DNA from: an uncultured Candidatus Binatia bacterium | Lineage (GTDB): Bacteria > Desulfobacterota > Binatia > UBA9968 > JAJDTQ01 | DNA: 64,000 nucleotides | Assembly: GCA_965213675.1 (NCBI GenBank) | Contig: OZ243916.1 | Location: forward strand, 2,304,001-2,368,000 | Direction: 5' to 3' | Part shown: positions 1 through 20,344 of the stretch, piece after piece | Position numbering within the stretch: position 1 is the stretch's first letter | Layout of the letters: the number at the start of each line of letters is the position of its first letter | The notes under the pieces: generated by a model | Seen by the model: only the letters and a program-made list of their open reading frames with translations | The model's database searches: none | What the model was told of the DNA's origin: nothing | Made by a program: the position numbers and the translations under genes

Positions 1-1581
1 ACCATCCCGCCGCTGGTGTGCTCGCTGGTGGCGGTGGTATGGCAGCTCGGCACGGTCACCGCCCTGGGTTTCGGCATCGATCCCATGTCCATCCTGGTGC
101 CGTTCCTGGTATTCGCGGTGGGGGTCAGCCACGGCGTGCAGATGGTGAGCGCGGTGCGCGCCGAGGTGGTGGCCGGGGCCGCCGGCCTGGACGCGGCGCG
201 GGCGAGTTTCCGGCGTCTGCTGCTGCCCGGCGCGGTGGCGCTGGCGTCGGACTCCGTGGGTTTCATCAGCATCTCGTTCATCGAGGTGCAGGTCATCCGG
301 GAGACGGCCATCACCGCCAGCCTCGGCATCGTGGCCATCATTCTTACCAACCTGGCGCTGCTGCCGGTGCTGCTCTCATATTTCCGCATGAGCGAAGCCG
401 AGCGGCGGGCCGCGGCCGGGCGCGACAGCGTTCTGCGGCCGCTATGGTCCCGCGTGGCGCGGTTGGCGCACCGGGGTCCCGCGGCCGTGACCGTGGGCCT
501 TGCCGCGGCGCTGGTGACCGTGGGGGCCTTATACGCGGTCCAGGTCCAGGTGGGCGACAGCCACCAGGGCGTGCCCGAACTGCGCGCCGAATCCGTGTAC
601 AACCGTGACATCGCCACCATCACCGAACGCTTCAAGATCGGCGTGGACGTGCTCACGGTGTTCGCGGAGACGGTGCCGGACGGGTGCATCGACTACGACG
701 TGCTTGCTACCCTGGACGCGTTCACCTGGCACGTGCGCAACGTGGAGGGAGTCCAATCCGTGATGAGCCTGGCCAGCGTCGCGCGCAACATCAACGCCGG
801 CTGGAACGAGGGCAACCTCAAGTGGCGCACGCTGCCGCGAAACCGCCACAGCCTGGTGCAGTCGGTTGCGCCGGTACCCACCAGCAGCGGCCTCATCAAC
901 AACGATTGCAGCGTGCTCCCGGTGCGCATCTACACCGTCGATCACAAGGCGGAGACCATCCAGCGCGTGGTCGACGCCACCCGGGAGTTCCAGCGCCCGA
1001 ACACCGTGGAACGCATTCGCTTTCATCTGGCGGGGGGCAACGTCGGCGTGATGGCCGCCACCAACGAAGAAGTGGATGCTTCCCAGTTCCCGATCCTGGG
1101 CTACGTCTTCGCCGGGATCATCCTGCTGTGCCTGCTCTCGTTCCGCTCCGTGGCCGCCACGGTGTGCATCATCGTGCCGCTGGCCGCGGTATCCATCCTG
1201 GCCTACGGGCTCATGGCGATCCTGGAGATCGGGCTCAAGATCTCGACCCTGCCGGTGGTCGCCCTGGGGGTGGGAATCGGCGTGGACTACGCCATCTACA
1301 TCTATGGCCGGCTGCGCGCCCATCTGGAAGAAGGGCTGGACTTCGCCGACGCCTACGAACGCACCCTCAACATCACCGGCGCCGGCGTGGTGCTCACCGG
1401 ACTCACCCTGGCCGCGGGCGTGGCCACCTGGATCGTCGCCCCGCTCAAGTTCCAGGCCGACATGGGCACGGTGCTGATGTTCATGTTCCTGGTCAACATG
1501 ATCGCCGCCGTGGTGCTGCTGCCGGCCCTCGGCGCGTGGCTCGTGCGCCCGAGGCCGGCGGAACGCGTAAAAGGGACGTAG
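1..1581 (+). CDS. MMPL/RND family transporter (5' truncated by window edge)
   Basis: Reading frame open from the window start; two hydrophobic TM bundles around a periplasmic domain; motifs AVGVSHGVQ and GVGIGVDYAIY typical of MMPL proteins. Confidence 0.85.
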   Translation, partial: TIPPLVCSLVAVVWQLGTVTALGFGIDPMSILVPFLVFAVGVSHGVQMVSAVRAEVVAGAAGLDAARASFRRLLLPGAVALASDSVGFISISFIEVQVIRETAITASLGIVAIILTNLALLPVLLSYFRMSEAERRAAAGRDSVLRPLWSRVARLAHRGPAAVTVGLAAALVTVGALYAVQVQVGDSHQGVPELRAESVYNRDIATITERFKIGVDVLTVFAETVPDGCIDYDVLATLDAFTWHVRNVEGVQSVMSLASVARNINAGWNEGNLKWRTLPRNRHSLVQSVAPVPTSSGLINNDCSVLPVRIYTVDHKAETIQRVVDATREFQRPNTVERIRFHLAGGNVGVMAATNEEVDASQFPILGYVFAGIILLCLLSFRSVAATVCIIVPLAAVSILAYGLMAILEIGLKISTLPVVALGVGIGVDYAIYIYGRLRAHLEEGLDFADAYERTLNITGAGVVLTGLTLAAGVATWIVAPLKFQADMGTVLMFMFLVNMIAAVVLLPALGAWLVRPRPAERVKGT

Positions 1582-1772: not shown

Positions 1773-4091
1773 ATGACTTCCAAGTCGAAGCCCGGTTTTT
1801 TCGATCTGATAGTGGATCGATACTTCTGGACGATAGCCGTCACTTTCCTGTTGACCGCCGTGCTCGCCACGGGAGTACAGCACCTCATTACCGTCAATGT
1901 AGGCATCCGAAATCACTTCGATGACAATGACCCGCATTTGATCAACCTCGACGATTTCGAAACGACCTACGCAGTGTCGGACAGCGTCCTCGTCATTGTC
2001 GCCCCGCCGAACGACACCGTTTTCACGCGCAAAGCACTCGTTGCGATTGAGCAACTGACGGACGTGTTGTGGCAAACGCCTTATTCTGTCCGTGTCGATT
2101 CGATAACCAATTACCTGCACACCGAGGGAATCGAGGACACCCTGATTGTCGAGCAACTGGTCGACGACGCGGCTTCGCTGGGCGACGTCAACCTCGCCCG
2201 CATTCGAGACATCGCCCTCACCGCACAGGAAACGGCCGGCCGTTTCGTCTCTCGCGACGGTCGTGTGGCCGGCCTGATCGTGAGCCTGGCCATCCCCGCT
2301 GAACAACGCAAACAGCGCAAAATCGAAGTGGTCGACGGTCTCTACGGTCTGGTCAACAAACAGCGCGCGGCCAACCCCGACATCGAATATCACATCTATG
2401 GTGAACTGTTGTTGAATCGGGCGGTTCGCGACGCGCTGACAGACGATATGTCCTTTTTGGCGCCAATCGCGCTTGCGATGATGGTTCTGGTCGCGATGCT
2501 GTTGTTGCGTTCGGTTTGGAGCGTTTGCGGGATTTTTGCGATGATAATTGCGGTGATGGCATCGAGTTTCGGCCTAACCGGCTGGTTCGGTTTGAAATTC
2601 TATGCGGAAAGCGGCGCCGCGGTATTCGTTCTGATGGCGATTGCCATCGCACACTCCGTCCACCTGATCGAAGGAGTGACCGTTGGAATGCTTCGTGGAA
2701 TGGAACGTAAAGCCGCCGTTGTTCACTCCCTGACAATCAATGCCCATCCGATCTTCCTTACTTCGCTCACCACCATGATCGGTTTTCTGAGCCTGAATTT
2801 TTCGGAAATGCCGCCGTTTCGAGTGATGGGTAATATCGTTGCGTTCGGCGCCATGTGCGCCTTCGTCTACGCGGTCACGCTTTTGCCCGCATTGTTGGCG
2901 ATGATGCCCATCCGGGCACCCGCCGAAACGAGACACGGAACGACACCTTTCAAGCGTTTGGGAGATTTCGTCGTTTCCAAAAGCATTTTCTTGCTATGGA
3001 CTTTCGTCATCCTCGTTCTGGTGAGCGCATATGGCATCTCGCGAATCAGCCTGAATGACAACAACAACGCCAAGCTCCTTAACGAAAGCTACGACTTGCG
3101 CCGATCGGGTGATTTCATCAACGAGCACTTTGCCGGGCTGGATTCCTTTGAGTATTCACTGAATTCCGGGCGCGCGGGGGGAATCACCGACATTGAGTAC
3201 CTGCGTCGGGTGGATTCGTTCGCCAACTGGCTTCGCGAACAGCCTGAAGTTTCTCACGTCACCTCGATTGCCGATATCATGAAGCGGATTAATCAAAATC
3301 TTCATAATGACGCAAAAGGCACCTATGCCCTCCCGGCAAACTCCGACCTTGCGGCGCAATACCTGCTTTTATACCAGTTCTCCCTACCGGTCGGCCGCGA
3401 CATAGACAATCTCATCAACTTTGAGCGGTCGGCGACCCGGATGACCGTCGTGATCGGGGGAATGTCGGTCAAAAAGCAAATCGAGCTGGACAATCGCGCT
3501 TCTGCCTGGCTGGGACACAATGCTCCGCAAATGCGGACCGGAGCGACCGGCGTCGCCATTGTGGGCGCTTACTCGGTGATGAGAAACATCGTGAACATGT
3601 TACTCGGCACCTTCATCGCGATCTCGACCGTGTCGCTGCTGTTGATCCTTGCATTCAAAAGCCTTCGCTTGGGGCTTCTAAGCCTGATACCCAATTTCGT
3701 GCCGGCAATCATATCCTTGGGGGCATGGGGTTACGCTGTGGGAACCGTGAATATTGCGGCGTCAATCGTTACCGCGATAGCGTTTGCCATCGTTGTGGAC
3801 GATACCATCCATCTCCTGTCGAAATACCTGACTTCACGCGCAGAGGGCAAATCACCTTCCGAAGCCATCCCGCCGACTTTCGAGCTCGTGGGACAACCGC
3901 TGCTGAGCACCACGTTGATTTTTGCGGTGGCATTTTTCGTCTTTGGCGCATCGGGGCTAGTGACCAATCAGACGCTCGGTTTGCTGGTCGGAATGACGGT
4001 CATCATTGCGCTCGTTGCGGACCTCTTTTTGTTACCGCCGCTTCTGCTGGCCCTCGACAGGACGAAACACCGGCAAACGCTCGACGACTAG
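1773..4091 (+). CDS. MMPL/RND family lipid transporter (candidate sterol/triterpenoid transporter)
   Basis: 772 aa, duplicated MMPL architecture, AIVVDDTIH motif in second half, LAAQYLLLY periplasmic motif; codon usage more A/T-rich than the flanking genes. Confidence 0.85.
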   Translation: MTSKSKPGFFDLIVDRYFWTIAVTFLLTAVLATGVQHLITVNVGIRNHFDDNDPHLINLDDFETTYAVSDSVLVIVAPPNDTVFTRKALVAIEQLTDVLWQTPYSVRVDSITNYLHTEGIEDTLIVEQLVDDAASLGDVNLARIRDIALTAQETAGRFVSRDGRVAGLIVSLAIPAEQRKQRKIEVVDGLYGLVNKQRAANPDIEYHIYGELLLNRAVRDALTDDMSFLAPIALAMMVLVAMLLLRSVWSVCGIFAMIIAVMASSFGLTGWFGLKFYAESGAAVFVLMAIAIAHSVHLIEGVTVGMLRGMERKAAVVHSLTINAHPIFLTSLTTMIGFLSLNFSEMPPFRVMGNIVAFGAMCAFVYAVTLLPALLAMMPIRAPAETRHGTTPFKRLGDFVVSKSIFLLWTFVILVLVSAYGISRISLNDNNNAKLLNESYDLRRSGDFINEHFAGLDSFEYSLNSGRAGGITDIEYLRRVDSFANWLREQPEVSHVTSIADIMKRINQNLHNDAKGTYALPANSDLAAQYLLLYQFSLPVGRDIDNLINFERSATRMTVVIGGMSVKKQIELDNRASAWLGHNAPQMRTGATGVAIVGAYSVMRNIVNMLLGTFIAISTVSLLLILAFKSLRLGLLSLIPNFVPAIISLGAWGYAVGTVNIAASIVTAIAFAIVVDDTIHLLSKYLTSRAEGKSPSEAIPPTFELVGQPLLSTTLIFAVAFFVFGASGLVTNQTLGLLVGMTVIIALVADLFLLPPLLLALDRTKHRQTLDD

Positions 4092-4259: not shown

Positions 4260-6290
4260 TCAGGCCGAAATGTCGCGCAACTGGCTTGCGATGCGCAGCC
4301 GAAGTTTCTTCGTAACCGACAATGCCGGGAATGGGTTGATTTTCAGTTTATAGTCTTTGGGCGGCGGCGCAAAGTCGAAATGGTGCGCTATAACCAACAC
4401 GGTAACCGTCGCCTGCAAATGCATCCATGCCCATCCCGCGCACGAGTGGGTATCCAAGCCGTTCGGAGCGTATCCAGGACCTTGATGCTCATTGCGCGGC
4501 GGCAGGTAACGGTCTATATCGAAGTCGTAGGGGTCTGCGAAGCAATCACTCATGTAGTGGGCCGCGGTTTGCACAATGTACAACCGTTCCCGGAGCGGCA
4601 GTGAATAATTTTCCACCACGCAAGAATTTGCGACATCGCGAAGATGTGTGCTGATAATCGGATACATTCGCAAGCATTCCATGAGAAAGCGCCTGGTAAC
4701 GTCATATTTGTCCGGCGTAAACGCTTCTTTATTCGGATCGCCGCCATCGAACAGCGCGTTTGCCTCTTCACGAATTCTCGCCGCAATATCCGGGTGCCTG
4801 GCCAACTCATAAAGTGCGAAACCCAACATGTCCCCTAGATAAATACTTTGAAACACGGGCGTTACCGCCATCATGAACATCAGGTTTTGCTCCGGGATAA
4901 ACTGCGGATCGCTGGTGTGCAAAGAAATCAGCTCGTCCGCCAGCTCCCGGGCAGCGCCTGCACGGTGAATGGGAATGTGGTTCTGTTCGATGCGCCGCAG
5001 GAGTTTCTCGTAAAGCTGGAAGCGATACTTCATGCCGGGAGTGCGCGTCAGGAATTTCGGGAGAAAATCCGCAACGTAGCAAAGGATTGCTTTTTCATTC
5101 CATTTGACCAGGTCTTCAAATACATCTTGCGAATTCGTACTAATAAGAACCTGAGACATTTGAAAATTGGTCATCGACCGGGTATCGCGCTGTACTTCCA
5201 GTGTCGAGCCGGCCTGCCACTTTTGAGTTATCATGAATTGGCGGCTCAGTCGGAACATGTCATCCAGCCGCTCGTGGAAACTGGCCTTCGAGTAAATTTT
5301 CCCCATCAGCTTGCGCAATCGAAAATGATCAGCTCCGTCCGTCGACGGCAGTAAATTGTTTGCGCCGCAAACCGTCTCCATCTTGCGAAAAAAATTGCCG
5401 GAAGTCAAAAACCTTCGGGAATTTCGACGCATCCAATGATTGATGTCAGGTCCTGCCAAAAATGTTCGCGGTCTTTGAAACGGCGGACAGATTTGAAAGA
5501 CGGGACCATATCGGGCGGCCAGATTCCCGAACAGGGCTGGCAGGTTGCCGTCCCACAAATGCCGATTTGCGAACAAGCTCCTTAGGGGAATCTTCGGAAT
5601 TGGTTTTGTGAGGGGTGAGTGTTGCAATACAGGCGTAATGGCGACCTGCTTGACAGCAGTGGAGATGACCCGGTTGATCAGTTCCGTTTTACAAACCTGG
5701 TCAATTCGCTTTTTCTCGTCCTCGCCCAGCTCGAAAATGAATTTGATGATATCGCACGCGCTCAAAAGACCGATTATCAGGGAATCCCTCGGGTCTGGAA
5801 TGATATCCGTGAAAATTACCTTCGCGATTCGCGATTTGATGTACTTTCCAACGGTCTCGCTTTGAGGATATCGTTCCAATTCCGCATGCCAGGCGCAGTG
5901 GTTCGTTGTATAAAACTCACCATCATGGCGCGTCAGAATTTCGGAGTTGATCAACTGCTTCAATGTAGCATCGATGATGTCTTCCGAATGAACTGCAAGC
6001 CGCTCAATCCAGTATCGCGGTTCTTCCAGATTGGGATGAGATGCGAACTCTTCCAGACATAAATCCAGTGCCGGGTCGCCTGTTTTGGTCGAGTCCAGGA
6101 GAAAGAGCGATTCTTCGTCGGTATCAATGCGTGATTTCAGGGAGAGATCGGCCAGAACTGCGCCGATGGTGGCGCAGTTCAACGTCCAGCCCTCCACTTG
6201 GTGGAAATAACCGTTCTGCTCGTTGAGAATCGTCAGGATGAATTCTTGCGGGATATTCAACGATTGCTTCGTTATCATGTTACACGCCAT
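4260..6290 (-). CDS. GPP34/GOLPH3(Vps74)-like domain fused to cytochrome P450
   Basis: N-terminal ~220 aa has the GPP34 pattern (EFILTILN..G..GAVLADLSLKSRID..TGDPALD..WIERL); C-terminal P450 has ExxR (ECLR), DPYDFDIDRY and heme Cys in THSCAG; start ATG at 6290 or 6278 after GAGGA. Confidence 0.82.
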   Translation of the reverse strand: MACNMITKQSLNIPQEFILTILNEQNGYFHQVEGWTLNCATIGAVLADLSLKSRIDTDEESLFLLDSTKTGDPALDLCLEEFASHPNLEEPRYWIERLAVHSEDIIDATLKQLINSEILTRHDGEFYTTNHCAWHAELERYPQSETVGKYIKSRIAKVIFTDIIPDPRDSLIIGLLSACDIIKFIFELGEDEKKRIDQVCKTELINRVISTAVKQVAITPVLQHSPLTKPIPKIPLRSLFANRHLWDGNLPALFGNLAARYGPVFQICPPFQRPRTFLAGPDINHWMRRNSRRFLTSGNFFRKMETVCGANNLLPSTDGADHFRLRKLMGKIYSKASFHERLDDMFRLSRQFMITQKWQAGSTLEVQRDTRSMTNFQMSQVLISTNSQDVFEDLVKWNEKAILCYVADFLPKFLTRTPGMKYRFQLYEKLLRRIEQNHIPIHRAGAARELADELISLHTSDPQFIPEQNLMFMMAVTPVFQSIYLGDMLGFALYELARHPDIAARIREEANALFDGGDPNKEAFTPDKYDVTRRFLMECLRMYPIISTHLRDVANSCVVENYSLPLRERLYIVQTAAHYMSDCFADPYDFDIDRYLPPRNEHQGPGYAPNGLDTHSCAGWAWMHLQATVTVLVIAHHFDFAPPPKDYKLKINPFPALSVTKKLRLRIASQLRDISA

Positions 6291-6358: not shown

Positions 6359-9300
6359 CTACGAGATCTTCTTTGCCGTTCCGGTTCCGCCGTCCGGCGT
6401 CATGTCCACAGCCGCCACTCTTCCAGCCATGACGCGTTGACTTCTCGCCGGTAATATCATGTTCATTCGTTGGTTCCGGCGACGCTGCTCGTAGAGGGCA
6501 AGCGCGTGCAGGGGGAAATACTGGCGGTAGAGCACGTAATCCAGGAGGGCCGTTCGAAAAAAAACGCCGGCCATGTCCTGCTTGGGCCAAGTCCCGTCTG
6601 CTTCCTGCGTATCAAGCAGGAAGCCGGCACCCCGGGAAATCGCGGCCCAGTCTGTTGTGCCCGCCTCGAGGAGCGCTATCAGCGCCCACGCGGTCTGTAT
6701 GACCTGGCTTTCCTGATGCGGGACGTAGCGACCGGTCAGGCAGCCGCTGTGGTGTTCGCCCCATCCCCCGTCTGGCTGCTGGCGCTCCAGCAGCCAGCGG
6801 CAAGACGCGCGCAGCGCCGGATCGCTTGGACCGGCCCGGTCCGAAACAAGGCCCCTGATGCCGAAAAGGGTGCCGTAGATGTACTGTACCCCCCATACGC
6901 CGCGCCAACTGCCGTCAGCCATCTGGTGCCGTCGCAACCACAAGACGCCCCGGGCGATGGAGTCGGCAACCACCGACCTGTCGCCAATTTCGGGAAATCG
7001 ATCCCGGCAGACAGCCAGCGCCGCGATACAAGACGCGGTACACTCGACAAAAGAACGCTCGGTCATCGATTCGCCGAACATCTCTGCAGGATTCAAACGC
7101 TCCAGATCAATTGCCGAGCGCCTGGCCTCATAACTGCCGAAGCCCCCGTCGGGGTTCTGGCTTCGCAACATAAAGCCAATCGCTTCGCTGAGGACGGACG
7201 GGTCCGTGTCGTCTCCGTGGGCGGCGACGAGTCCGAGCACCGCCTCCGCCGTGCAGTCACTCACCGGCCAGCCATGCCACCCGCCGGCGAAGCACCAGCC
7301 GCCTTTGGGGTCAGCGCGGTAGGCTTCACGAAACCGCTCAAAGCTGGTCTTGATCTGTTCGCCGAGCAGAAAATCGGCGCCGCGCCGGAGCGCATCCCGA
7401 ACACGGTCCGTCTCAGGCATGGTAGCCAGAGCCTGCAGCGCGAACCCGGTATCCCACGAAGCGCTTCTTGCTCCGCTGACCCGCAAGCCGTCGTCTTCGT
7501 CTTCCCATATCCAGGAACCCATTTTCGATAGCGCCCGTCGGCAATCGGTATCGTCCGGATCGTGCAGCCACAGCGCCAGAATGTTGAGAATGCCGCTGAC
7601 CGGAGAGATGCTCGTATGGCCGGTGGTCTGCAGTTCCCATCTGATCTGCCCGAGAATTGTATCCATGCACCGTGTGCGCAGGTGTTTGCTGTGGAACCGC
7701 TCGACCAGCCGTGCAAATCCATATCCGAGCCTGAGCCAGACGGACGGCCTTGCAAAAAGATCGGCGTCCCGAAGCCGGTTCCTGGCGGCGAGAAAGTCGG
7801 CCCTGGCAAAACCTTGCGGATAAAGCTCTTCCCGCAACGCGGCGATAACTGGTGTGACGGGCGCCTGGAACCGGCGGGCATAAATCGACGCCATCGCCAT
7901 ATAGATGAGCCGTGTATGGCAGTACCAGTTGGAAGGATGCAGCGGTATCTTCCGCGGCAGGCTCCACAATTCCGGCAGAACAGCGTTCACGCCGTTCCAA
8001 TCATAAAGATTAAGGAGCGCCAGCCATAATTTTCCCCAGCTCGGAATGCCGAGAATCCCCTCGGCCTGAATGAACCGCCGGGCCGGCGCGATCAGGGGGT
8101 CATCCGGCAATACACCGAGCAGCCGCGCCGCGACATAAACGAGGGCGGTGACGAACAGATGGGGCGACGAATGCTCGTGCAGGCCCCATGAACCGTCCTG
8201 GAGACGAGTCCTCTCAAACGAGCGCAGCACCCGGCGCCGCTTTCCCGGATCGAGCGGCTGGCCGATGATGTGGTGGAGCAGTACGTATTGCGCCGTGAGC
8301 ATGGGACACCAGACCATCTCGCCTTCCCAGTCGCCGTCCTCTCTCTGCAGTTGCACGAGGCATTGGGCGGCGCTGTCCAGCGCCGGGCCGGCATCGGGCG
8401 AATCGACCGCTCCCGCGCGGGCGGGCCGCTCCGATTCGGTTTTCGAAGGGATGGAATAGGGGAATGCCCGTCGTAGGTGCTCTCGCGTATTCGCGCTTTC
8501 CTCCCTTCCTTCCCTGGTCGCCGCCCTCAACTGGCGGATGCCGAGCAGCAACCACCAAAGGCGAGCAGCCAACGCGCGAAAGTTCACCAACATCCGACGC
8601 CATGAAAGCCTGCGGATGGAGAAGGTTATCTCCCGGCTCATTGCCCGCGCGACAGTTTCGCAAAAGGAGAAAACCGTCATTGACATGGACAAGTCTTCGC
8701 AGGCAAGTATCCGCATGGTCCGGTCCCGATACCCCGAATTCGCTCGCCAGCCTTGGTAAACGGCCTTTCTGAGCATAGCCGATTCGGTGCGGTAATCGCC
8801 CAACACCTCATAAAGCCCCATGGCAAGGAACTCGGGAACACGGGTCGCCTGGAACCGCTCTGCGGTGAATTGCTGGAAGTCCTCGCTTTCGGAGAGCGCC
8901 AGCGCATCGCCGAAGCCGAGAGTCATGCCGACTGCCGTCATGGGATGATAGTGTCCGGCGGCATCGCCGATAAGCACCCGGCGCGGGTTCCCGTACGTGA
9001 CACGCGGTCTCAATTGGTTGGGGGCGGCATGGAATCGCCTGACGTCCAGCGCTTCGACGAAGGCCGGCCCGAGATATCCCGGAAGCAGCTTGCCATAGGA
9101 TTCAGACAAGAAACTTATCCAGTCCTTGGAATGCCAGCAGTCCAATGGGACATCCACGTTGACCCGGACGGAGCCGTTCGCAAGTCCGTAAATGAAAATT
9201 GGACCCGGCCCGCCCAGAACCACATGTCCGTATCCTTCAAACGGCAGGTCGGCGTCGTGTAACGTCACCCCGAGCATCCGCGAACAGAGCATCGGGTCCA

Positions 9301-9799
9301 TGGAATACCCCAAGGATCTGCGCACGATCGAAGCGCGGCCGTCGGCGCCGATAATTCGGTCGACATTTATGGCGCAGTCCGAGCGGTCTTTCGAGAAGGT
9401 GATCCGTTCGTCTTCAACGACATTGACCCGCGCGTGGGAAATGAAATCGACATTGGCCTCGTTCTCTATGACCTCGCGGAGGCTTGAAACGAGCAGCGCG
9501 TGGTCGCATACCAGACCCCGTGAACCGTCTGGATAAGGAAGCAGGATCGGGTCGGAGTCGTCGTCGGGCAGCACCACGAAGCCGACGCCCGACTTGCTGC
9601 CGGAAAGCGTGTCGACATCAATCCCGATGTCACGCAACAAATTCACTGCCGGCGGATGCAACCATTCGCCTGCAAGGCGTTTAGACGCTTTCGGATTCGC
9701 TTCGAGCAGGGCCACCTTAACGCCCTTGCGCGCAAGGACAATTGCGCACACGCTTCCCACCGGTCCCGCGCCGACAATGGCGGTATCATACTTCGGCAC
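6359..9799 (-). CDS. Fused squalene monooxygenase (epoxidase) - oxidosqualene cyclase
   Basis: N-terminal FAD domain has GAGPVG, RLAGEWLHP, GADG and GDAAGHYHPMTAVGMT (squalene-epoxidase-like); C-terminal domain has QW repeats (QREDGDW, QMADGSW, QQPDGGW, QEADGTW), IPSWGKLWL, WYCHTR and catalytic VSDCTAE; single uninterrupted frame; GTG start at 9799 after GAGGAG. Confidence 0.92.
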   Translation of the reverse strand: MPKYDTAIVGAGPVGSVCAIVLARKGVKVALLEANPKASKRLAGEWLHPPAVNLLRDIGIDVDTLSGSKSGVGFVVLPDDDSDPILLPYPDGSRGLVCDHALLVSSLREVIENEANVDFISHARVNVVEDERITFSKDRSDCAINVDRIIGADGRASIVRRSLGYSMDPMLCSRMLGVTLHDADLPFEGYGHVVLGGPGPIFIYGLANGSVRVNVDVPLDCWHSKDWISFLSESYGKLLPGYLGPAFVEALDVRRFHAAPNQLRPRVTYGNPRRVLIGDAAGHYHPMTAVGMTLGFGDALALSESEDFQQFTAERFQATRVPEFLAMGLYEVLGDYRTESAMLRKAVYQGWRANSGYRDRTMRILACEDLSMSMTVFSFCETVARAMSREITFSIRRLSWRRMLVNFRALAARLWWLLLGIRQLRAATREGREESANTREHLRRAFPYSIPSKTESERPARAGAVDSPDAGPALDSAAQCLVQLQREDGDWEGEMVWCPMLTAQYVLLHHIIGQPLDPGKRRRVLRSFERTRLQDGSWGLHEHSSPHLFVTALVYVAARLLGVLPDDPLIAPARRFIQAEGILGIPSWGKLWLALLNLYDWNGVNAVLPELWSLPRKIPLHPSNWYCHTRLIYMAMASIYARRFQAPVTPVIAALREELYPQGFARADFLAARNRLRDADLFARPSVWLRLGYGFARLVERFHSKHLRTRCMDTILGQIRWELQTTGHTSISPVSGILNILALWLHDPDDTDCRRALSKMGSWIWEDEDDGLRVSGARSASWDTGFALQALATMPETDRVRDALRRGADFLLGEQIKTSFERFREAYRADPKGGWCFAGGWHGWPVSDCTAEAVLGLVAAHGDDTDPSVLSEAIGFMLRSQNPDGGFGSYEARRSAIDLERLNPAEMFGESMTERSFVECTASCIAALAVCRDRFPEIGDRSVVADSIARGVLWLRRHQMADGSWRGVWGVQYIYGTLFGIRGLVSDRAGPSDPALRASCRWLLERQQPDGGWGEHHSGCLTGRYVPHQESQVIQTAWALIALLEAGTTDWAAISRGAGFLLDTQEADGTWPKQDMAGVFFRTALLDYVLYRQYFPLHALALYEQRRRNQRMNMILPARSQRVMAGRVAAVDMTPDGGTGTAKKIS

Positions 9800-10103
9800 C
9801 GAGTCAGCCCTCCTCAAAGGGCGCTGGGTATAGCGCGGCGGCGGTTGTGGAGGGCAGGTCTTCCAGGTTCGCCACTGGGGTAGGCATGACGAGCGCCTCC
9901 TGCACCACGTTCGTGGCGAGGCCGGTGAAGGTCAGAGTCGGGTCACTTCCCGCACCGTGTTTGCGAGCGAATCATCTTGTCTTTCAAGGGACGAGTTGTA
10001 TTTCTTTGTTTTCAGCCAATTGCGGGCGGCAGGACAAACCTTACACGGCCAAGTTTCAAACCCGCCAGTGTCCAATCGCGCCGAGACGTGTCTCCAACCC
10101 CCC

Positions 10104-10742
10104 CTACGCCGCGAACGACGCCTGTGTTTCCTTCTCGAAGGCCAGTAGCTTCTGGACGCTGGGGCGGGTCTGCATGCGCGCGAAATGCGCGCGCACGTTG
10201 GGATAGGGCTCCAGGTCGATGTCGAACTGGGTGCTGCGGCGTACGCACCAGAAGAAATGCGCGTCCGGCGCGGTGAAGTGATCGAAGAAGTACTCGCGCC
10301 CGTCCAGCATGGACTCGGCGATTCCGTTGGTCTCGGCCAGGAACTCGGCGGCGATGCGGGACACGCTCTCCACGCTGTCCGCCGCGTCGCACACCTTGGC
10401 CGGCGAGTTGATGCGGCTCAGATAAGGGTGGATGCCCGATGCGCACCACGACATGATCGAGATCGCCCTGACCTCATCCCAAGGATCCGACGGCAGCAGC
10501 CTGGCCTCCGGGAAGCGCCGCGCGATCCACACCTGAATGGCCACGTTCTCCGTCAGGGTTTTCCCGTCCACCATCAGAAGCGGCACCTTGTGCTTGGGAT
10601 TGAGCTTCATGTACTCCTCGGTGCGGTTCTGCCCCGCCCGGAAGTTCAACGCCTTGACTTCGAAGTCCGCCCCCGCCTCGGTCAACGTGATGTAGGGCGC
10701 CATCGCGCAGGTGATGGGCGCGTAATACAACTGGATGCTCAT
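10104..10742 (-). CDS. Glutathione S-transferase family protein
   Basis: NPKHKVPLL and LTENVAI motifs, 212 aa, GGAGG RBS. Confidence 0.9.
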   Translation of the reverse strand: MSIQLYYAPITCAMAPYITLTEAGADFEVKALNFRAGQNRTEEYMKLNPKHKVPLLMVDGKTLTENVAIQVWIARRFPEARLLPSDPWDEVRAISIMSWCASGIHPYLSRINSPAKVCDAADSVESVSRIAAEFLAETNGIAESMLDGREYFFDHFTAPDAHFFWCVRRSTQFDIDLEPYPNVRAHFARMQTRPSVQKLLAFEKETQASFAA

Positions 10743-10779
10743 GGGTACCTCCGTGTGGTTGGCGACGAGGGTAAGTGCG

Positions 10780-10866
10780 TGGTGCCGGAGGGGGGACTCG
10801 AACCCCCACAGGGTTGCCCCTACTGGATTTTGAGTCCAGCGCGTCTACCAATTCCACCACTCCGGC
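10780..10866 (-). tRNA. tRNA-Leu(CAA)
   Basis: Cloverleaf GCCGGAG..CTGGA-CTCAAAA-TCCAG, long variable arm, GTTCGAG T-loop, encoded CCA. Confidence 0.97.
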
Positions 10867-10919
10867 ACGGAGTGAACCTGACCAGGAGCTTGCGCCGCAG
10901 GACTTCACGGCTGCAAATC

Positions 10920-11004
10920 CGCTCTCATCCGTCCCTTCGGCCGCTCGATCTCGTCAAACATGACCTGATATTCTCCTCGATCGGCCGAAGGGACGGCGAT
11001 AGCG
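10920..11004. repeat. Long imperfect inverted repeat upstream of tRNA-Leu
   Basis: CCGTCCCTTCGGCCGCTCGA ... TCGATCGGCCGAAGGGACGG. Confidence 0.6.
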
Positions 11005-11040
11005 AATTTTCGCCTTCGCCAATTACTGCGGAGCAGGCTC

Positions 11041-11205
11041 CTGGTGTCGTGTCCCACGTAAATCTTGACAAGGATGCACAGGATTTTTCGTTGCCGGCAA
11101 GGCGCGATGACGAGCCATGGCTGTTACCAAGCGAGGAAGAGCAACGCAGCCGACGACGAAAAAGACCCGCAGATTTGCCAACATTTACGCGGGACACGAC
11201 ACTAG
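11041..11205 (+). mobile_element. MITE/ERIC-like repeat, copy 1 (165 bp)
   Basis: Terminal inverted repeats CTGGTGTCGTGTCCCACGTAAAT / ATTTACGCGGGACACGACACTAG; core GTTGCCGGCAAGGCGCGATGACGAGC..GCGAGGAAG..ACGCAGCCGAC shared with other copies. Confidence 0.85.
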
Positions 11206-11233
11206 CTTATGGCGGAAGTGACGTCAAGGTGCG

Positions 11234-11497
11234 TCACGCCTCGGCAAGTCCCGCCAATGGTATCGCCTGCTCCACCAACATGACGGGGATGTCCTCGCGG
11301 ACGGCGTAGAGGTAGCGGCCGTCCGCGCGAACGAGACCGCCGTCGATGGGTTCGGTCACCCTGTCGCCGGCGCGGTTGCGCAGTTGCCCGCCTTCGATCT
11401 TCCGATTGACGGTAGCGACGAGCGCCTCGTCCGCCAGCGAAACCGCCTCGTGGGTTTCGGGACATGCCAGGATGTTGAGCAATTTCTCATCAATCAC
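11234..11497 (-). CDS. Trm112-like family protein
   Basis: LLNILACP N-terminus and Y.VREDIPVML C-terminus; GGAGG RBS before GTG. Confidence 0.85.
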   Translation of the reverse strand: MIDEKLLNILACPETHEAVSLADEALVATVNRKIEGGQLRNRAGDRVTEPIDGGLVRADGRYLYAVREDIPVMLVEQAIPLAGLAEA

Positions 11498-13363: not shown

Positions 13364-13516
13364 GCCGGAAGACAGTCCAAGAGCCTGGCGGGATCACGAG
13401 GTCTCTGCGGGGACCCGTGCAGGGAGACGCCACACCCGGGCGCGCATACCGGTTCCAGACGGATCCGTGTCCGGTTGCGCGGGCGCTTGTGGATCGGGAC
13501 CGAAAGGAGAAGGATC

Positions 13517-14140
13517 GTGTCGGCAGAACTCGTTTTCTACACCCACCCCATGTCGCGCGGGCGCATCGTGCGCTGGATGCTGGAGGAGTTGCGCGTCCCC
13601 TACCGCACCGAGAGGGTGGAGTACGGCCCGATGATGAAGGCGCCGGAGTACCTGGCCATCAACCCCATGGGCAAGGTGCCCGCCATCCGCCATGGCGACA
13701 CCGTGGTCACCGAGTGCGCCGGCATCTGCGCCTATCTCGCCGATGCCTTCCCCGACGCCGGGCTGGCGCCTCCGGCCGGACAGCGCGGTGCCTACTTCCG
13801 CTGGCTGTTCTTCGCCGCCGGCCCGTTGGAGGCGGCGGTCACCGGCCGCATGTTCGGTTTCGCGGTGCCAGCGGACAAGGAATCCATGGTGGGCTACGGC
13901 AACTACGCCACGGTGATGAACGCGCTGGAGACGGCGGTGGCGGGCGACGGTTATGTCGCGGGCCATGCCTTTTCGGCCGCCGACGTGTACGTCGGATCGC
14001 ACATCGGTTGGGGCATGCAGTACGACACCGTCGAGAAACGCCCGGCCTTCGAAGCGTACTGGTCGCGGCTCAGCGCGCGCGAGGCCTATCAGCGCGCCAA
14101 CGCCATCGACGATGCGGCGGCTTCGGCCGACAACGCGTAA
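13517..14140 (+). CDS. Glutathione S-transferase family protein
   Basis: PMSRGRIVRWMLEE, NPMGKVPAI, TECAGIC; AGGAG RBS before GTG 13517. Confidence 0.9.
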   Translation: MSAELVFYTHPMSRGRIVRWMLEELRVPYRTERVEYGPMMKAPEYLAINPMGKVPAIRHGDTVVTECAGICAYLADAFPDAGLAPPAGQRGAYFRWLFFAAGPLEAAVTGRMFGFAVPADKESMVGYGNYATVMNALETAVAGDGYVAGHAFSAADVYVGSHIGWGMQYDTVEKRPAFEAYWSRLSAREAYQRANAIDDAAASADNA

Positions 14141-14244
14141 CGCCGGGGGTACCGCCCCACACTCACACGAGCAGCCCGTCACGTCCGCGCCCGCGCCGTC
14201 AGCATCGAGACGGGCAGGCTCATGGGCCCCTCCTGAATCCGGTT

Positions 14245-14907
14245 CTAATGGATGCCCGTGATCTTCACGCTGGCGTGCTTCGACTTGTAGCGACGATTGA
14301 GGGCGATGAGCACGCCGGTCAACCCCTCCACCACGTAGGCGTTGGAAGCCGGTCCGGCGTCCAGGCCGGTGGCGCCGATGCGCTCCAACAGCTCGATGAC
14401 GCGCCCCTTGGCTTCCCGATTGTCGCCGCACACCAGCACGTCGCCCAGGGGCTCGTCCGGGGCGCTGAGGTCCAGCGCCGAGATGTTGTGCAGCGCGCCG
14501 ATGACCGGGGTGTCGTCGCCCAGGATCTTCTGCGCCTCCAGCAGCGCCGAACCCGCTTCCGGCACGAACGGCCGACCCTTGAGCAGCGGCACCACCGCGT
14601 CGATGACGATCTTGCCGCGCAGTTCGTCCGCCAGATCGGCCACCATCTTCTCCTGTCCCTCGTAGGGGACCGAGATGACCGCCAGCTCCGCTTCGCGGAC
14701 TGCGTCGGCGTTGAGCATGCCTTCGACAAAGGAAGTGCCCAGCCTCTCGTTCAAATCCCGGGCTGCATCCGCGCCGCGCTGGGCGTCGCGTGAGCCGATC
14801 AGAACCCGCACACCGGGCCGCGCCAAGCGTCCCGCCAAGCCCATTCCGAGACTTCCGGTCCCTCCAACGATTGCAATTGAAATGGAATCTTGCATGGGGT
14901 GGCTCAT
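14245..14907 (-). CDS. npdG: NADPH-dependent F420 reductase (F420H2:NADP+ oxidoreductase)
   Basis: GGTGSLG Rossmann motif, IGSR, GSA, ALHNISA, DVLVCGD, VEGLT; lies in the cof operon; true start may be ATG 14895. Confidence 0.9.
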   Translation of the reverse strand: MSHPMQDSISIAIVGGTGSLGMGLAGRLARPGVRVLIGSRDAQRGADAARDLNERLGTSFVEGMLNADAVREAELAVISVPYEGQEKMVADLADELRGKIVIDAVVPLLKGRPFVPEAGSALLEAQKILGDDTPVIGALHNISALDLSAPDEPLGDVLVCGDNREAKGRVIELLERIGATGLDAGPASNAYVVEGLTGVLIALNRRYKSKHASVKITGIH

Positions 14908-14999
14908 AGCATGTTCGCGCCGGATGCGACAAATCCGCTCTGGACAGGTTCACTTGCAAGGCTGCCTTCCGACTTCGCTCGGCGGACGCGGAGTTGTGC

Positions 15000-15029
15000 C
15001 CGGGAGCCTGCGCCGCAGGCTCCCGGCGC
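15000..15029. repeat. REP-like palindrome GGGAGCCTGCGnCGCAGGCTCCC
   Basis: CCGGGAGCCTGCGCCGCAGGCTCCCGG; related copies near 10881-10905, 51115-51135 and 56211-56233. Confidence 0.6.
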
Positions 15030-15147
15030 GAACGGACGGGGAGCGCTCCCCTGAAGGCTTCGGCAAGCTCAAGACAGGCTTTGGGGAACGCGGGGAGCGC
15101 GGGGGGGCGCGGGCGCAGCGCCGGTCCCATGCACTTCCGCTGAAGTG

Positions 15148-16640: not shown

Positions 16641-16806
16641 CTGGTGTCGTGTCCCGTAAATTCCTGCGACAAGTTGCGCAGGATTTTTTTGTTGCCGGCA
16701 AGGCGCGATGACGAGCAGTGGCGGGCACCCCGCGAGGAAGGTCCACGCAGCCGACGGCGAAAAAGATCCGCAGATTATGACACGAATTAACCAGACACCA
16801 CACTAG
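16641..16806 (+). mobile_element. MITE/ERIC-like repeat, copy 2 (chimeric ends) between cofD and cofC
   Basis: Left end CTGGTGTCGTGTCCCGTAAATT, shared core, right end ATTAACCAGACACCACACTAG identical to the copy 4 end. Confidence 0.85.
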
Positions 16807-17785
16807 ACAGCAGTTCCCGTGCCAGCCGCTTCTTGTCTTCCAGGGTGTCCATGCGGATGGACGTGGCAAGCATGTGGACGCCAAGGCGCTCGATGGCGGG
16901 CTGCAATTTCCGGTCTTCGGTATCGACCACCAGCACATCGACAAAATCCCGATAGGCCTCCGCGAGCCCGGTGACGGACGCCTCCACGCCCAGCGTCGCC
17001 ATGAGCTTGTGTGCCGGGCCGCTAAAGGAGCGGCCCTGCACCATGGGACTCACGGCCACCACCTTGCCAGGCGTATCGCGCAGGGCCTGGCGCACGCCGG
17101 GCACCGCCAGAATGGGGCCGATGCTGGTGGCGGGGTTGCTGGGGCAAACCACCACCAGGGTGGCATGGCCGATGGCTTCGAGCATGCCCGGCGCGGGGCG
17201 GCTTTCCTCGATCCCCTGGTAGCGCAGGCTCAGGACCTCCGGCTGCCAGCGCGCCTTGACGAAGTATTCCTGAAAGGAGACCTCCCCGGCCGGCGTGGCC
17301 AGCCGCGTCTCCACCCGCTGGTCGGACATGGGCAGCACGGCGGCGCGCACCCCCAGCGCGCGGCACAGCATGGCGGTGACTTGGGACAACGGCTGACCCT
17401 GGGACAGGAGGCGCGTGCGCGTCAGGTGGGTGGCGATGTCCCGGTCGCCCAGATGGAACCAGGTTTCGTTGCCAAGCCGTTGGAGCTGGTCCAGCACGGT
17501 GAAAGTATCGTCCCGCACGCCCCAGCCCTTGGCCGGGTCGATGAGGCCGGCGAGGGTGTAGACGATAGTATCGACGTCGGGGGATACGTGGAGGCCATGC
17601 ACTAGCGCGTCGTCACCGGTGTTGCACAGCACCACCAGGTCTTCGGCGGCCGCCTCCTCGTGAAAGCCCAGCACGAGCTTGGCCCCACCGGTGCCTCCGG
17701 TAAGAAGCACATGTGTTCCGGCGCTGGGTTTCGTGGACAATTCCGGCGGTCTCTCCCGAGCGTCCCGCTCTTCCTGGTGCGGCAC
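16787..17785 (-). CDS. cofD: 2-phospho-L-lactate transferase
   Basis: GGTGGAKL, NTGDD, SPDVDT, WFHLGDRD, FQEYFV, PSNP.TSIGPIL. Confidence 0.93.
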   Translation of the reverse strand: MPHQEERDARERPPELSTKPSAGTHVLLTGGTGGAKLVLGFHEEAAAEDLVVLCNTGDDALVHGLHVSPDVDTIVYTLAGLIDPAKGWGVRDDTFTVLDQLQRLGNETWFHLGDRDIATHLTRTRLLSQGQPLSQVTAMLCRALGVRAAVLPMSDQRVETRLATPAGEVSFQEYFVKARWQPEVLSLRYQGIEESRPAPGMLEAIGHATLVVVCPSNPATSIGPILAVPGVRQALRDTPGKVVAVSPMVQGRSFSGPAHKLMATLGVEASVTGLAEAYRDFVDVLVVDTEDRKLQPAIERLGVHMLATSIRMDTLEDKKRLARELLSSVVSG

Positions 17786-17848
17786 TCGGCGGCGGCTTCG
17801 AAGCCGGCCGTGCCCGGCGCCACCCCCGCAAGGGACGGCGGGTATCCG

Positions 17849-19093
17849 TTACAGACCCACGACCTTCTGATCCGCTGCGCCGGCGGCGGCCGCGAACTCG
17901 CCCGCCAGGATCTCCGACTCGTCCTCCCAGGCGCGCAGGACCTCATAGCCCGTGGAACGCTCGGCCGGAATGCGGTCGATCTCGCGGATGAGCGAACGGA
18001 ACTCGTGGGGCCGGATCATCTGCCCTTCGGTGGAACCCGCCAGCCGCGAGATGCTTTCCTCCATGAGCGTGCCGCCAAAGTCGTTGGCGCCGGAGCGCAG
18101 GCAGTGTTGCGACATGCGCCGGCCCATCTTCACCCACGACACCTGCACGTTGGGAATGGTGTCGTTGAGCAGCACCCGCGCCAGCGCGTGTACGCGGATG
18201 TCCTCCTCCTCGGTGGGGCCGGGACGCGCCAAGCCCTGCTGAAAGAGCGCGGTGTTCTCGTGTACGAACCCCAGCGGGACGAATTCGGTGAACCCGCCCG
18301 TCTCCTTCTGGATGTCGCGCAGCAGCAGCATGTGGTTCACCCAGTGGCTGCCGTTTTCCCGGTGGCCGTACATCATGGTGGAGGTGGTGAAGATGCCCAC
18401 CTCGTGGGCGGTGCGGATGACCCGGAGCCACTGCTCGGTGCTGACCTTGTTCTTGGACAGCACCATGCGCACCTCGTCGTCGAGGATCTCCGCGGCCGTG
18501 CCCGGCACGCTGTCCAGACCCGCGTCCCTTAGCATGCGCAGGTAATCGGCCAGCTCCATGCCGGTGAGTTCCACCCCGTAGGTGATCTCCATGGGCGAGT
18601 AGGCGTGGATGTGGATGCCGGGAACGCGGGAGCGGATGGCCTGAAGCAGGTCGCGGTAGTAGAAGGGCGTCATGCCCCGGGGCAGGCCGCCCTGCATGCA
18701 GATCTCGGTGGCGCCGCGGTTCCACGCATCCTCGGCCTTGTCCGCCACGTCTTCCAGCGAGTGGTCCCAGCTTCCGGCCTTGTTGGGGCCGGTGTGAAAC
18801 GCGCAGAACTTGCAGCCGACGTAACAGACGTTGGTGAAGTTGATATTGCGGCACACCACGTAAGTGATCTGGTCGCCGACCTTGGCCTGGCGCATGAGAT
18901 CGGCGGTCGCCGCAAGGGCCGCCAGTTCGTCGCCGCTCACCTCTGACAGAACGAGCCCTTCCTCCCGCGTGACCTCGTGGCCCGCCAGGGCGCGCTCCAG
19001 AATCTGCGCGACGCGGCCCTCCACGCGGGGCAACAGCCGGTTCAGACGTCCAACCTCGTCGTCATGGTCGAACATCGCTTCGATGTGGCTCAT
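17849..19093 (-). CDS. cofH: FO synthase subunit 2 (radical SAM)
   Basis: NINFTNVCYVGCKFCAF, PGTAAEIL, TSTMMYGH, FTEFVPL, QVSWVK, GANDFGGTLMEE. Confidence 0.92.
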   Translation of the reverse strand: MSHIEAMFDHDDEVGRLNRLLPRVEGRVAQILERALAGHEVTREEGLVLSEVSGDELAALAATADLMRQAKVGDQITYVVCRNINFTNVCYVGCKFCAFHTGPNKAGSWDHSLEDVADKAEDAWNRGATEICMQGGLPRGMTPFYYRDLLQAIRSRVPGIHIHAYSPMEITYGVELTGMELADYLRMLRDAGLDSVPGTAAEILDDEVRMVLSKNKVSTEQWLRVIRTAHEVGIFTTSTMMYGHRENGSHWVNHMLLLRDIQKETGGFTEFVPLGFVHENTALFQQGLARPGPTEEEDIRVHALARVLLNDTIPNVQVSWVKMGRRMSQHCLRSGANDFGGTLMEESISRLAGSTEGQMIRPHEFRSLIREIDRIPAERSTGYEVLRAWEDESEILAGEFAAAAGAADQKVVGL

Positions 19094-20294
19094 GGTGTCC
19101 TCCGACGGCGCCTGATGTCGTGTCCCACGACACCAGGCCGTCCTCGTCGCAAAGTCTCTCGATGCAGGGGATCAACCCGGGCGCGATGAACCGCTGCCCT
19201 TGCGCGATGTATTCCGGGTAGATGGGAAGGCGGGGCCGCAAACGGAAACCAGCGGCCGCGGTGCGCTCCGCCAGTTCCACAAGCTCGGGCCAGGGCGCCT
19301 CCGGGTTGATGAAGTCGCGAGTGACGGGCGACACCCCGCCCCAGTCGTTGATGCCGGCGTTCAGGTACCACTCGTAACACTCCGGCGTCAGGTTGGGCGG
19401 CGCCTGGATGTTCATGTCGCCCCCCAGAATCAGCCGTGCCAGGGCGATGGTCCTGGCCTCGTCGTCGTAGTCCGCATCAGGCTGATCGTTCATGGGGATC
19501 TCGGGCTTCACGCGGAAGTTCTGCACGATCACTTCCTGGATGTGGCCGTAACGTTCATGCAACTCGCGAATGGCGTACAGCGACGCGATGCGCTCTTCCC
19601 AGGTCTCGCCAATGCCGATGAGGATACCCGTGGTGAACGGGATGCCCAGCCGGCCGGCCTCGGCCAGGGTCCGAAGCCGCGCCGCCGGCTTCTTGTCGGG
19701 AGCGTCGGCATGGGCGCCGCCCGGCTCCATGAGGCGCTCGCTGACGCTCTCCAGCATGAGCCCCATGCTGACGTTTACCCGCCGGAGCCGCTCCAGATCG
19801 GCGCGCGCCATGAGCCCGGGGTTGGCGTGGGGCAGGAGCCCGGTCTCCTCCAGCACCACGCGACACGCTTCGTACAGGTACTCCAGCGTCCGGCGGTAAC
19901 CCGCCTGGCGGAGGAACTCCCGCATCTCCGGGTAGATGGCCTCGGGCTTGTCCCCCAGGCTGAACAGCGCCTCGGTACAGCCCATCCCCTTCGCCCGCCG
20001 CGCCGTTTCCAACACTTCATCCAGGGACAGGGTCCTGGCCCCTGCGTCTTCGGGCGCCTTGCGAAACGTGCAATAGCCGCAGAAATCGCGACACAGGTTG
20101 GTCAGCGGGATGAAGACCTTGGGGGAGAAGGTAATGGTGCGGCCCTTGTGGCGGTCGCGCAACGCGGCAGCCGCTCGGAGCAGCGCCGTGAACTCATCTC
20201 CCTCGACACCGGCAAGCAGGAGGGCGTCGCCCGGCGCCAAGGAACCCCGGTCGAGACATTCCTGCAGCAGTCGTGGGACTTGTCGAGTCGTCAT
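19062..20294 (-). CDS. cofG: FO synthase subunit 1 (radical SAM)
   Basis: FIPLTNLCRDFCGYCTF, LLPHANPG, SMGLMLE, FTTGILIGIGE, QAPPNL, DWGGVSP; start at ATG 20294 (MTTRQ). Confidence 0.92.
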   Translation of the reverse strand: MTTRQVPRLLQECLDRGSLAPGDALLLAGVEGDEFTALLRAAAALRDRHKGRTITFSPKVFIPLTNLCRDFCGYCTFRKAPEDAGARTLSLDEVLETARRAKGMGCTEALFSLGDKPEAIYPEMREFLRQAGYRRTLEYLYEACRVVLEETGLLPHANPGLMARADLERLRRVNVSMGLMLESVSERLMEPGGAHADAPDKKPAARLRTLAEAGRLGIPFTTGILIGIGETWEERIASLYAIRELHERYGHIQEVIVQNFRVKPEIPMNDQPDADYDDEARTIALARLILGGDMNIQAPPNLTPECYEWYLNAGINDWGGVSPVTRDFINPEAPWPELVELAERTAAAGFRLRPRLPIYPEYIAQGQRFIAPGLIPCIERLCDEDGLVSWDTTSGAVGGHHEPHRSDVRP

Positions 20295-20315
20295 TGCCAA
20301 ACGCTCAAAGTGGCT

Positions 20316-20344
20316 TGCATAACGGATAAGGGGGTCCGGGTCAA
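20316..20344 (-). promoter_or_regulatory. Candidate sigma-70 promoter of the cof operon
   Basis: TTGACC-17 nt-TATGCA on the minus strand, 21 nt upstream of the cofG ATG. Confidence 0.45.

Follow-up and report, generated by a model that had tools for sequence, protein, structure and literature searches.

What does a protein domain of the GOLPH3/Vps74 fold do at the head of a cytochrome P450, and why does the gene for such a protein lie next to a sterol cyclase gene in a bacterium? These questions are raised by a gene at positions 4260..6290 (minus strand) of a 64,000-nucleotide stretch of DNA from an uncultured Candidatus Binatia bacterium (assembly GCA_965213675.1, contig OZ243916.1, positions 2,304,001 to 2,368,000), here called the window. 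An earlier note on this DNA had read the gene as a GPP34 domain fused to a P450 and had proposed that the domain brings the enzyme to membranes in place of a transmembrane anchor. In this study, we show that both domains are conserved together, and that relatives of the gene recur among genes for sterol-type enzymes and lipid transporters. We consider it reasonably probable that the product, a two-domain member of the GPP34_L family, is a cytoplasmic heme-thiolate protein acting on a sterol-like triterpenoid together with an MMPL-type lipid transporter.

The fusion gene is a single open reading frame (ORF) of 676 aa counted from the ATG at 6290. Pfam detects both GPP34 (PF05719) and p450 (PF00067) within this one frame and both folds are matched, so that the fusion proposed in the earlier note is real. 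A second ATG at 6278, 12 nt after the first, gives a 672-aa form of the protein. Because the protein-collection record that is 100% identical to the fusion protein has 672 residues, the true start is probably the ATG at 6278; the sequence GAGGA lies directly 5' of the ATG at 6290. Among the 120 best homologues, 118 have the two domains in proteins of about 670 residues, with identities of 49-100%, and the remaining two are truncated. This architecture was described in 2025 under the name GPP34_L (Microbiome 2025;13:4, PMC11706023; our statements on this paper refer to its main text and its spreadsheet supplement). The supplement gives GPP34_L a length of 620-700 aa, and GPP34 plus P450 makes up 656 of the 663 multi-domain GPP34 proteins of that paper. 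The gene is thus a member of a known family and not a rare oddity.

Purifying selection acts on the GPP34 and P450 halves alike. The ratio of nonsynonymous to synonymous substitution rates (dN/dS), given as GPP34/P450, is 0.20/0.22 against the near relative L002 and 0.15/0.14 against the near relative L003; over the comparisons with L002, L003 and L004 it lies at 0.14-0.30 for both domains, and in the comparison with L007 the synonymous rate is saturated. The two halves are joined by a linker (5586..5636, minus strand, residues 219-235) with the proline-rich stretch SPLTKPIPKIP at residues 225-235, C-terminal to the GPP34 domain. P220, K229, I231 and P232 of the linker are invariant or nearly so in a 25-member family alignment. 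In a predicted full-length model of the fusion (predicted local distance difference test score, pLDDT, 84.3; predicted template-modelling score, pTM, 0.71), the linker has low pLDDT at residues 223-227.

The GPP34 domain (5652..6254, minus strand, residues 13-213) matches the Pfam profile with E 7.4e-23 and 82.1 bits against a cut-off of 29.1, over profile positions 1-198 of 201. The N-terminal region of about 220 aa that had been assigned to this domain, 5620..6290, encloses this span. Direct comparison with solved structures by phmmer is weak (Vps74 at E 0.23), and profile and fold searches were needed. A profile of the family matches GOLPH3 with E 3.6e-4 (9qpq_A) and E 1.9e-4 (3kn1). For residues 1-230, an AlphaFold2 model made from 23 family sequences (pLDDT 84.5, pTM 0.84) was searched against the PDB with Foldseek; the best match was 9qpq_B (E 8.6e-8, template-modelling (TM) scores 0.70/0.66), and all eight matches at E <= 0.001 were GOLPH3 or Vps74. 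VIA-align against 48,161 representative chains placed Vps74 (2zih_A, Z 18.0, root-mean-square deviation 2.7, 196 residues aligned) and GOLPH3 (3kn1_A, Z 18.0, 2.6, 190 aligned) far above the next-best chain at Z 4.2. The earlier note had proposed a profile and Foldseek comparison of the N-terminal region, and the predicted model gave GOLPH3/Vps74 as the only fold, together with the PF05719 match.

The fold is retained; most contact residues of the ligand pocket are not. In the portion of PMC3596250 drawn on here, the residues of GOLPH3 that contact phosphatidylinositol 4-phosphate (PI4P) are W81, R90, R171 and R174. In the profile alignment to 9qpq_A, W81 corresponds to W35 and is kept, and R90, R171 and R174 fall on I42, E103 and I106, with moderate posterior confidence near R171 and R174. 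One of four contacts, the tryptophan, is therefore retained in the fused domain. Within the family W35 is invariant, E103 and I106 are nearly invariant, and the aligned members have V, I, A or M at position 42. With three of the four contact residues replaced, phosphoinositide binding of the GOLPH3 kind, which the earlier note mentions for the eukaryotic proteins, appears unlikely here. At the N-terminus of the fusion as translated, no hydrophobic stretch of a signal peptide is visible by eye, no predictor having been applied. The same genome also encodes a stand-alone GPP34 protein of 230 aa (G000:C1:220051-220668; L071 1456-2148, minus strand; Pfam 149.8 bits), which is 34% identical to the fused domain and has no equivalent of Trp81; there is no P450 gene in the 3.6 kb around it.

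The C-terminal part (4263..5585, minus strand, residues 236-676) is an atypical cytochrome P450 domain. Pfam p450 matches residues 489-661 (E 3.8e-22, 79.1 bits against a cut-off of 22.8), a match confined to profile positions 282-455. The family profile extends further and aligns residues 251-648 to Methylococcus CYP51 (6mi0, E 3.1e-24), the best solved relative, followed by taxadiene hydroxylase, the P450DA heme domain, CYP184A1, CYP120, CYP90B1 and CYP46A1. By profile, P450s of sterol and terpenoid metabolism are thus the nearest among those of solved structure. Superposed on solved P450s, the full-length model reaches target-normalised TM scores of 0.69-0.83, the highest with Methylococcus CYP51 (6mcw); the structural matches near the top include fatty-acid P450s, namely CYP184A1 with oleic acid and BM3. 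When aligned with the heme loops of P450s, Cys617 (codon 4440..4442, minus strand) in the loop PNGLDTHSCAG is the predicted heme thiolate ligand. H615, C617 and G619 do not vary among 25 family members, and neither do the ExxR residues E538 and R541.

The usual oxygen-activation motif of the P450 I-helix is A/G-G-x-D/E-T. By alignment, the corresponding segment of the fusion protein is S482-I-Y-L-G-D487 (4830..4847, minus strand), in which Tyr484 takes the place of the acid and Leu485 that of the Thr. S482, Y484, G486 and D487 are invariant in the 25 members, giving the motif S-x-Y-x-G-D. The fusion protein was considered as the CYP51 of a sterol pathway and rejected, given the weak profile E-value, the replacement of the CYP51 motif AGHHTS and the co-occurrence of true CYP51 genes at other loci. 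At L025/L056 the fusion gene is accompanied by two sterol methyltransferase genes, a squalene epoxidase-oxidosqualene cyclase gene, ERG24 and a true CYP51, which matches 6mcw with E 1e-100; the CYP51 of L007 is 78% identical to that of L025/L056. Because a true CYP51 shares these clusters with it, the fusion protein is not the 14-demethylase.

The adjoining upstream gene (6359..9817, minus strand) ends 68 nt upstream of the fusion gene on the same strand and encodes a protein of 1152 aa in which, by Pfam, a squalene epoxidase is joined to an oxidosqualene cyclase (SE-OSC). The linkage to a sterol cyclase on which the earlier note had drawn is thus genuine. The SE and FAD_binding_3 families match residues 10-357, and the N- and C-terminal SQHop_cyclase families match residues 481-1110. 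The cyclase half aligns to human lanosterol synthase (1w6k) with E 1.9e-135 and keeps the VSDCTAE motif; against TIGR03463 (osq_cycl) the protein scores 733.8 bits, under the cut-off of 851. At the positions of human T381, C449 and V453, which we take to separate lanosterol from cycloartenol synthases, the cyclase half reads Ala, His and Val. This pattern is mixed, and therefore the cyclisation product cannot be named from the sequence. A scan of the region gave no promoter-like or terminator-like site above shuffles, and none terminator-like in the 68-nt gap between SE-OSC and the fusion gene.

On the other side, convergent (tail-to-tail) with the fusion gene, lies a gene for an MMPL/HAE3-type RND transporter with a sterol-sensing domain (1773..4091, plus strand; Pfam MMPL 1.2e-30, Sterol-sensing 3.2e-6, HAE3 below its cut-off). 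Its scores for the known families HpnN (91.9 bits against a cut-off of 751.85) and BstA (17.8 against 1400) are low. A predicted complex of this transporter, entered as an alignment, with GPP34 residues 9-222 scored 0.00 against a mark of 0.32, in a run without controls, a score that favours neither binding nor its absence. The GC content is 0.509 for the fusion gene, 0.549 for the transporter gene, 0.614 for SE-OSC and 0.653 for the genome; the fusion and pump genes look acquired, and the cyclase gene is nearer to host composition. A second MMPL-family gene (1..1581, plus strand; Pfam MMPL 2.5e-24) runs off the start of the window, is of native-type composition (GC 0.677, third-position GC 0.91) and may lie outside the island formed by epoxidase-cyclase, fusion and pump genes.

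The association extends beyond the window. A search of genome contigs with the single fusion protein found three near-identical loci only, and a scan of metagenome contigs with the 25-member alignment matched 253 stretches. A relative is encoded in 124 of these, and the analysis went on with the best 80, in 64 loci. Neighbour genes were called and clustered, recurrent clusters were named by Pfam, and their members were then re-detected by homology for counting. Merging the loci at a fusion-gene identity of at least 95% gave 54 groups, of which the 48 with at least 3 kb of flank, with the window, L002 and L003 among them, were counted and 6 were left out. An MMPL gene is a neighbour in 32 of the 48 loci, a Rieske protein with KshA C-domain in 25, a sterol methyltransferase with Sterol_MT_C (SMT) in 18 and a flavin adenine dinucleotide (FAD)-dependent amine-oxidase-like protein in 13. 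SE-OSC is found in 6/48, a LolA-like gene in 5/48, AcrB in 3/48 and ERG4/ERG24 in 2/48. At least one of these families is present in 46/48 loci, the exceptions being L014 and L026. An RND pump (MMPL or AcrB) is the most constant neighbour (35/48), and ABC genes also occur near the fusion gene. The survey of other GPP34-P450 neighbourhoods suggested in the earlier note thus shows that sterol-type cassettes recur and that the cyclase link generalises.

The Rieske protein of these cassettes was compared with the sterol demethylase SdmA and rejected as such (31 bits against a cut-off of 600); it is KshA-like. Four of the loci have the fusion gene in tandem. Tandem or nearby duplicate fusion genes occur at L035, L040, L041/L042 and L019, and contig Ga0209754_1000018 carries fusion copies at two sites, L035 and L039.

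Among 27 other genomes in the window's genus, 19 encode the fusion protein. A full-length fusion was found in none of 73 genomes of two other families in the order, two of which match the P450 half only, with 26% identity. Fifteen regions from 13 other genus genomes were scored for the same neighbour families. In 11 of the 15, the fusion gene is accompanied by MMPL and by SMT, Rieske and/or FAD oxidoreductase, all four being present in 7; the region of genome G012 holds SE-OSC, fusion gene and MMPL, the same set as the window. Two further regions are distant paralogues (about 30% identity) with none of the listed neighbours, and one is a fragmentary second fusion copy next to part of an SMT gene. 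The 45 members in a quick maximum-likelihood tree, midpoint-rooted and excluding L066 (in-frame stop in the extraction) and partial-gene loci, fall into two clades, each with an SH-like approximate likelihood ratio support (SH-aLRT) of 100. SE-OSC lies at the locus in 5 of the 6 rows of the window clade and in 1 of the 39 of the other.

Two side observations concern these clades. MMPL genes of the window type, 56-90% identical to the window pump, accompany clade A and some clade B loci. In the nearest relative genome (L085, G057:C1:1135000-1154900), whose fusion gene is 99% identical to that of the window, the region at about 8187-9916 of L085 contains fragments of a clade-B-type fusion gene and of an SMT, which look like remnants of a decayed SMT cassette.

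The genome from which the window is taken is 97.7% complete. It encodes two tandem SQS_PSY proteins resembling HpnC and HpnD, and SE-OSC is the only cyclase found. Two further P450s are present, neither of them a CYP51 (best CYP51 match 24% identity). A few kb away from the tandem SQS_PSY genes (G000:C1:3153191-3161050) there is a second MMPL gene of the genome, 50% identical to the window pump over the matching part, which is adjoined by a LolA-like gene and an unnamed gene of the 447-aa type. The same trio of MMPL, LolA-like and 447-aa-type genes flanks the fusion gene in L004 and L060.

Taken together, we infer the substrate class, the coupling to the transporter, the co-transcription with the cyclase gene and the role of the GPP34 domain as follows. 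The tandem HpnC/HpnD-like squalene synthases would supply squalene, the adjacent epoxidase-cyclase would convert it to a protosterol, the fusion protein would modify or handle this protosterol at the inner membrane, and the convergent transporter with its sterol-sensing domain would move the product. The likely substrate here is the direct product of the adjacent cyclase, because no other sterol enzyme was found in the genome. As the acid-alcohol pair of the I-helix is missing, the chemistry of the P450 would be non-standard; this loss leaves room for an unusual reaction or for a binding role. The GPP34 domain would be non-catalytic and would most likely tether the P450 to the membrane or to a partner, by means other than the PI4P pocket of GOLPH3. 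In microsomal P450s, the membrane anchor lies N-terminal to a proline-rich stretch. By analogy, the GPP34 domain may occupy the place of that anchor. GPP34 is also joined to a Rieske domain in 2 genomes and to an ABC ATPase in 5 genomes (PMC11706023), and because Rieske and ABC genes are at the same time neighbours of the P450 fusion, the domain would suit a module that docks or anchors lipid oxygenases and transporters.

Several observations weigh against this proposal. The substrate of GPP34_L is deduced from gene neighbours alone, and SE-OSC is present in just 3 of the 27 other genus genomes. Most carriers may accordingly not make sterols themselves, and host sterols or another lipid may be the substrate. 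The window's own genome gave no match to Sterol_MT_C or ERG4/ERG24, no CYP51, and no match to the Rieske or FAD oxidoreductase enzymes of the cassettes; the family searches behind these absences also gave no match in control genomes, which leaves the absences unproven. Downstream sterol enzymes were thus found neither in the cluster nor in the genome (sdmA and sdmB were not searched as such), and the organism's own sterol pathway would end at an undemethylated protosterol. With regard to the enzyme itself, the I-helix reads QSIYLG as compared to AGHHTS in CYP51 and AGHETT in P450DA, and the acid-alcohol pair is missing; moreover, the heme loop of the window protein has Asn where the other 14 members read carry Tyr or Phe. 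Because of these two changes, ordinary monooxygenase activity of the fusion protein appears uncertain. No ferredoxin or reductase gene was found within the window. The neighbouring MMPLs belong to two subfamilies with a mutual identity of only 16-19%. Finally, few record prefixes are represented among the metagenome loci, and the genomes of the genus are related to one another; the counts, not being independent, describe a pattern and do not amount to a statistical test.

Two other explanations draw on these same points. The fusion protein may tailor a non-sterol lipid, that is another isoprenoid or a fatty-acyl lipid of the kind moved by MMPL/HAE3 pumps, the adjacency to the cyclase reflecting joint transfer on a mobile island. 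That most genus carriers have no cyclase speaks for it, as does the finding that 26 of the 48 loci have no SMT, SE-OSC or ERG24 within reach; pumps of this type carry many lipids, the window pump scores far below the HpnN and BstA cut-offs, and CYP184A1 with oleic acid and BM3 are among the top structural matches. Nevertheless, the enzymes that most often accompany the fusion belong to sterol-specific families (SMT with Sterol_MT_C, KshA-C Rieske, ERG24, CYP51), the window belongs to the clade tied to the cyclase (5/6) and CYP51 is the best profile match, so that we regard a non-sterol substrate as unlikely.

Alternatively, the P450 domain may not be an oxygenase at all. It could be a heme protein that binds or senses a sterol or hands it to the transporter, or one that catalyses an O2-independent rearrangement of an already oxygenated substrate, with GPP34 docking it. 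The replacement of the acid-alcohol pair by an invariant S-x-Y-x-G-D would agree with this, and so would the lack of a redox-partner gene seen nearby and the fact that the most constant neighbour is a pump (35/48 loci) rather than an enzyme. The Cys ligand, the ExxR motif and the overall P450 fold are retained, however, bacterial P450s often have their redox partners encoded at another site, and some functional P450 monooxygenases have no conserved Thr. We consider this explanation improbable, to about the same degree as a non-sterol substrate.

Least probable appears the published reading, in which GPP34_L is a symbiosis factor that is released by the bacterium, binds host PI4P in the manner of GOLPH3 and, in sponge cells, disturbs phagosome maturation, the P450 being accessory: the fold is truly that of GOLPH3/Vps74 with an invariant Trp81 equivalent, and the architecture is reported from sponge symbionts only, with expressed GPP34 genes (PMC11706023), but R90, R171 and R174 are replaced by I42, E103 and I106 (with moderate alignment confidence at R171/R174), no signal-peptide stretch is visible by eye, and a conserved heme-thiolate site under purifying selection has no place in this account, nor does it explain the near-constant neighbourhood of lipid enzymes and pumps.

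Returning to a protein that acts on a sterol-like triterpenoid, a wider interpretation can be offered, tentatively and as a possibility that we rate below the function itself. GPP34_L may be the signature enzyme of a horizontally shared module for sterol tailoring and export in animal-associated bacteria, and not a host effector. It would be an oxygen-activation-deficient P450 with an unusual sterol chemistry at the inner membrane, held there by a GOLPH3 fold without phosphoinositide pocket, and it would feed an MMPL pump. If so, the epoxidase-cyclase/fusion/pump island of the window is the minimal version of this module, which makes, modifies and exports one protosterol derivative. Bacteria could then supply their hosts with modified sterols, a prospect of relevance to the debate on sponge sterol biomarkers and to the question whether bacterial symbionts make or remodel the unusual sponge sterols that are used as molecular fossils. 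With a single cyclase fusion, a single fusion P450 and a single pump, the window is the simplest natural test bed among the loci seen. Moreover, the fusion is a further case in which a bacterial enzyme makes use of a membrane-adaptor fold of eukaryotic type.

The remaining genes of the window are housekeeping genes, including F420 synthesis, ClpB, MreBC/PBP2/RodA and others. At 16787-20624 (minus strand), a CofD gene and two radical-SAM CofH/CofG-like genes suggest that the organism makes F420. Two long ORFs at 10185-11309 (plus strand) and 13394-15130 (minus strand), which flank a UbiD-family gene by the island, match no Pfam or NCBIfam family and have a third-position GC of 0.59 and 0.58, as compared to about 0.9 in native genes. 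They could be frames called in error or further acquired genes.

Concerning the literature, the words sterol, steroid, squalene, methyltransferase and MMPL are absent from the main text of PMC11706023, and sterol, squalene and MMPL are absent from its spreadsheet supplement; its flanking-gene figure is part of a separate PDF supplement outside this scope. Full-text literature searches, which lie outside most subscription journals, gave no paper linking the GPP34-P450 fusion to sterol genes, and a term search of a 2025 preprint on SMT (10.64898/2025.12.19.695621) found no tie between the fusion and sterol genes. Sterol clusters of uncultured symbionts with fused squalene monooxygenase/oxidosqualene cyclase, SMT, ERG11, ERG24 and sdmAB have been described (Brown et al. 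2023, PMC10070321); P450 and cytochrome do not occur in the main text of that paper, and its supplement holds only true ERG11 homologues and no GPP34.

With these clusters our loci share the fused squalene monooxygenase/oxidosqualene cyclase, and related loci hold SMT, CYP51 and ERG24, whereas the window genome itself yielded none of these three and the Rieske protein of the family resembles KshA and not SdmA. Like HpnN and BstA, the window pump is an MMPL/HAE3-type RND transporter, here with a sterol-sensing domain, but it falls so far below both cut-offs that it belongs to neither family. Bacterial CYP51 (6mcw, 6mi0) is the closest solved P450 by profile and by target-normalised TM score, yet its identity to the P450 of the fusion is only about 18%. 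The CYP51-ferredoxin of Methylococcus capsulatus is likewise a P450 of a sterol pathway found as a fusion protein; in the present case the partner domain is N-terminal and is not a redox protein. GOLPH3 and Vps74 share with the fused domain the fold (Z 18.0), the Pfam family and the equivalent of Trp81. In contrast to these proteins, the domain is bacterial and joined to an enzyme, is 14-20% identical in sequence, lacks the 10-residue loop before the RNVRER helix and has Ile/Glu/Ile in place of R90/R171/R174. Closest of all is GPP34_L itself, with the same two domains in the same order (676 aa here) and hundreds of two-domain relatives. The only published account, in PMC11706023, proposes that these proteins bind PI4P, interfere with phagocytosis and so help the symbiont to escape it, whereas the window gene stands beside a sterol cyclase and a pump with a sterol-sensing domain, and this context together with the lost PI4P residues points to sterol or triterpenoid chemistry and transport.

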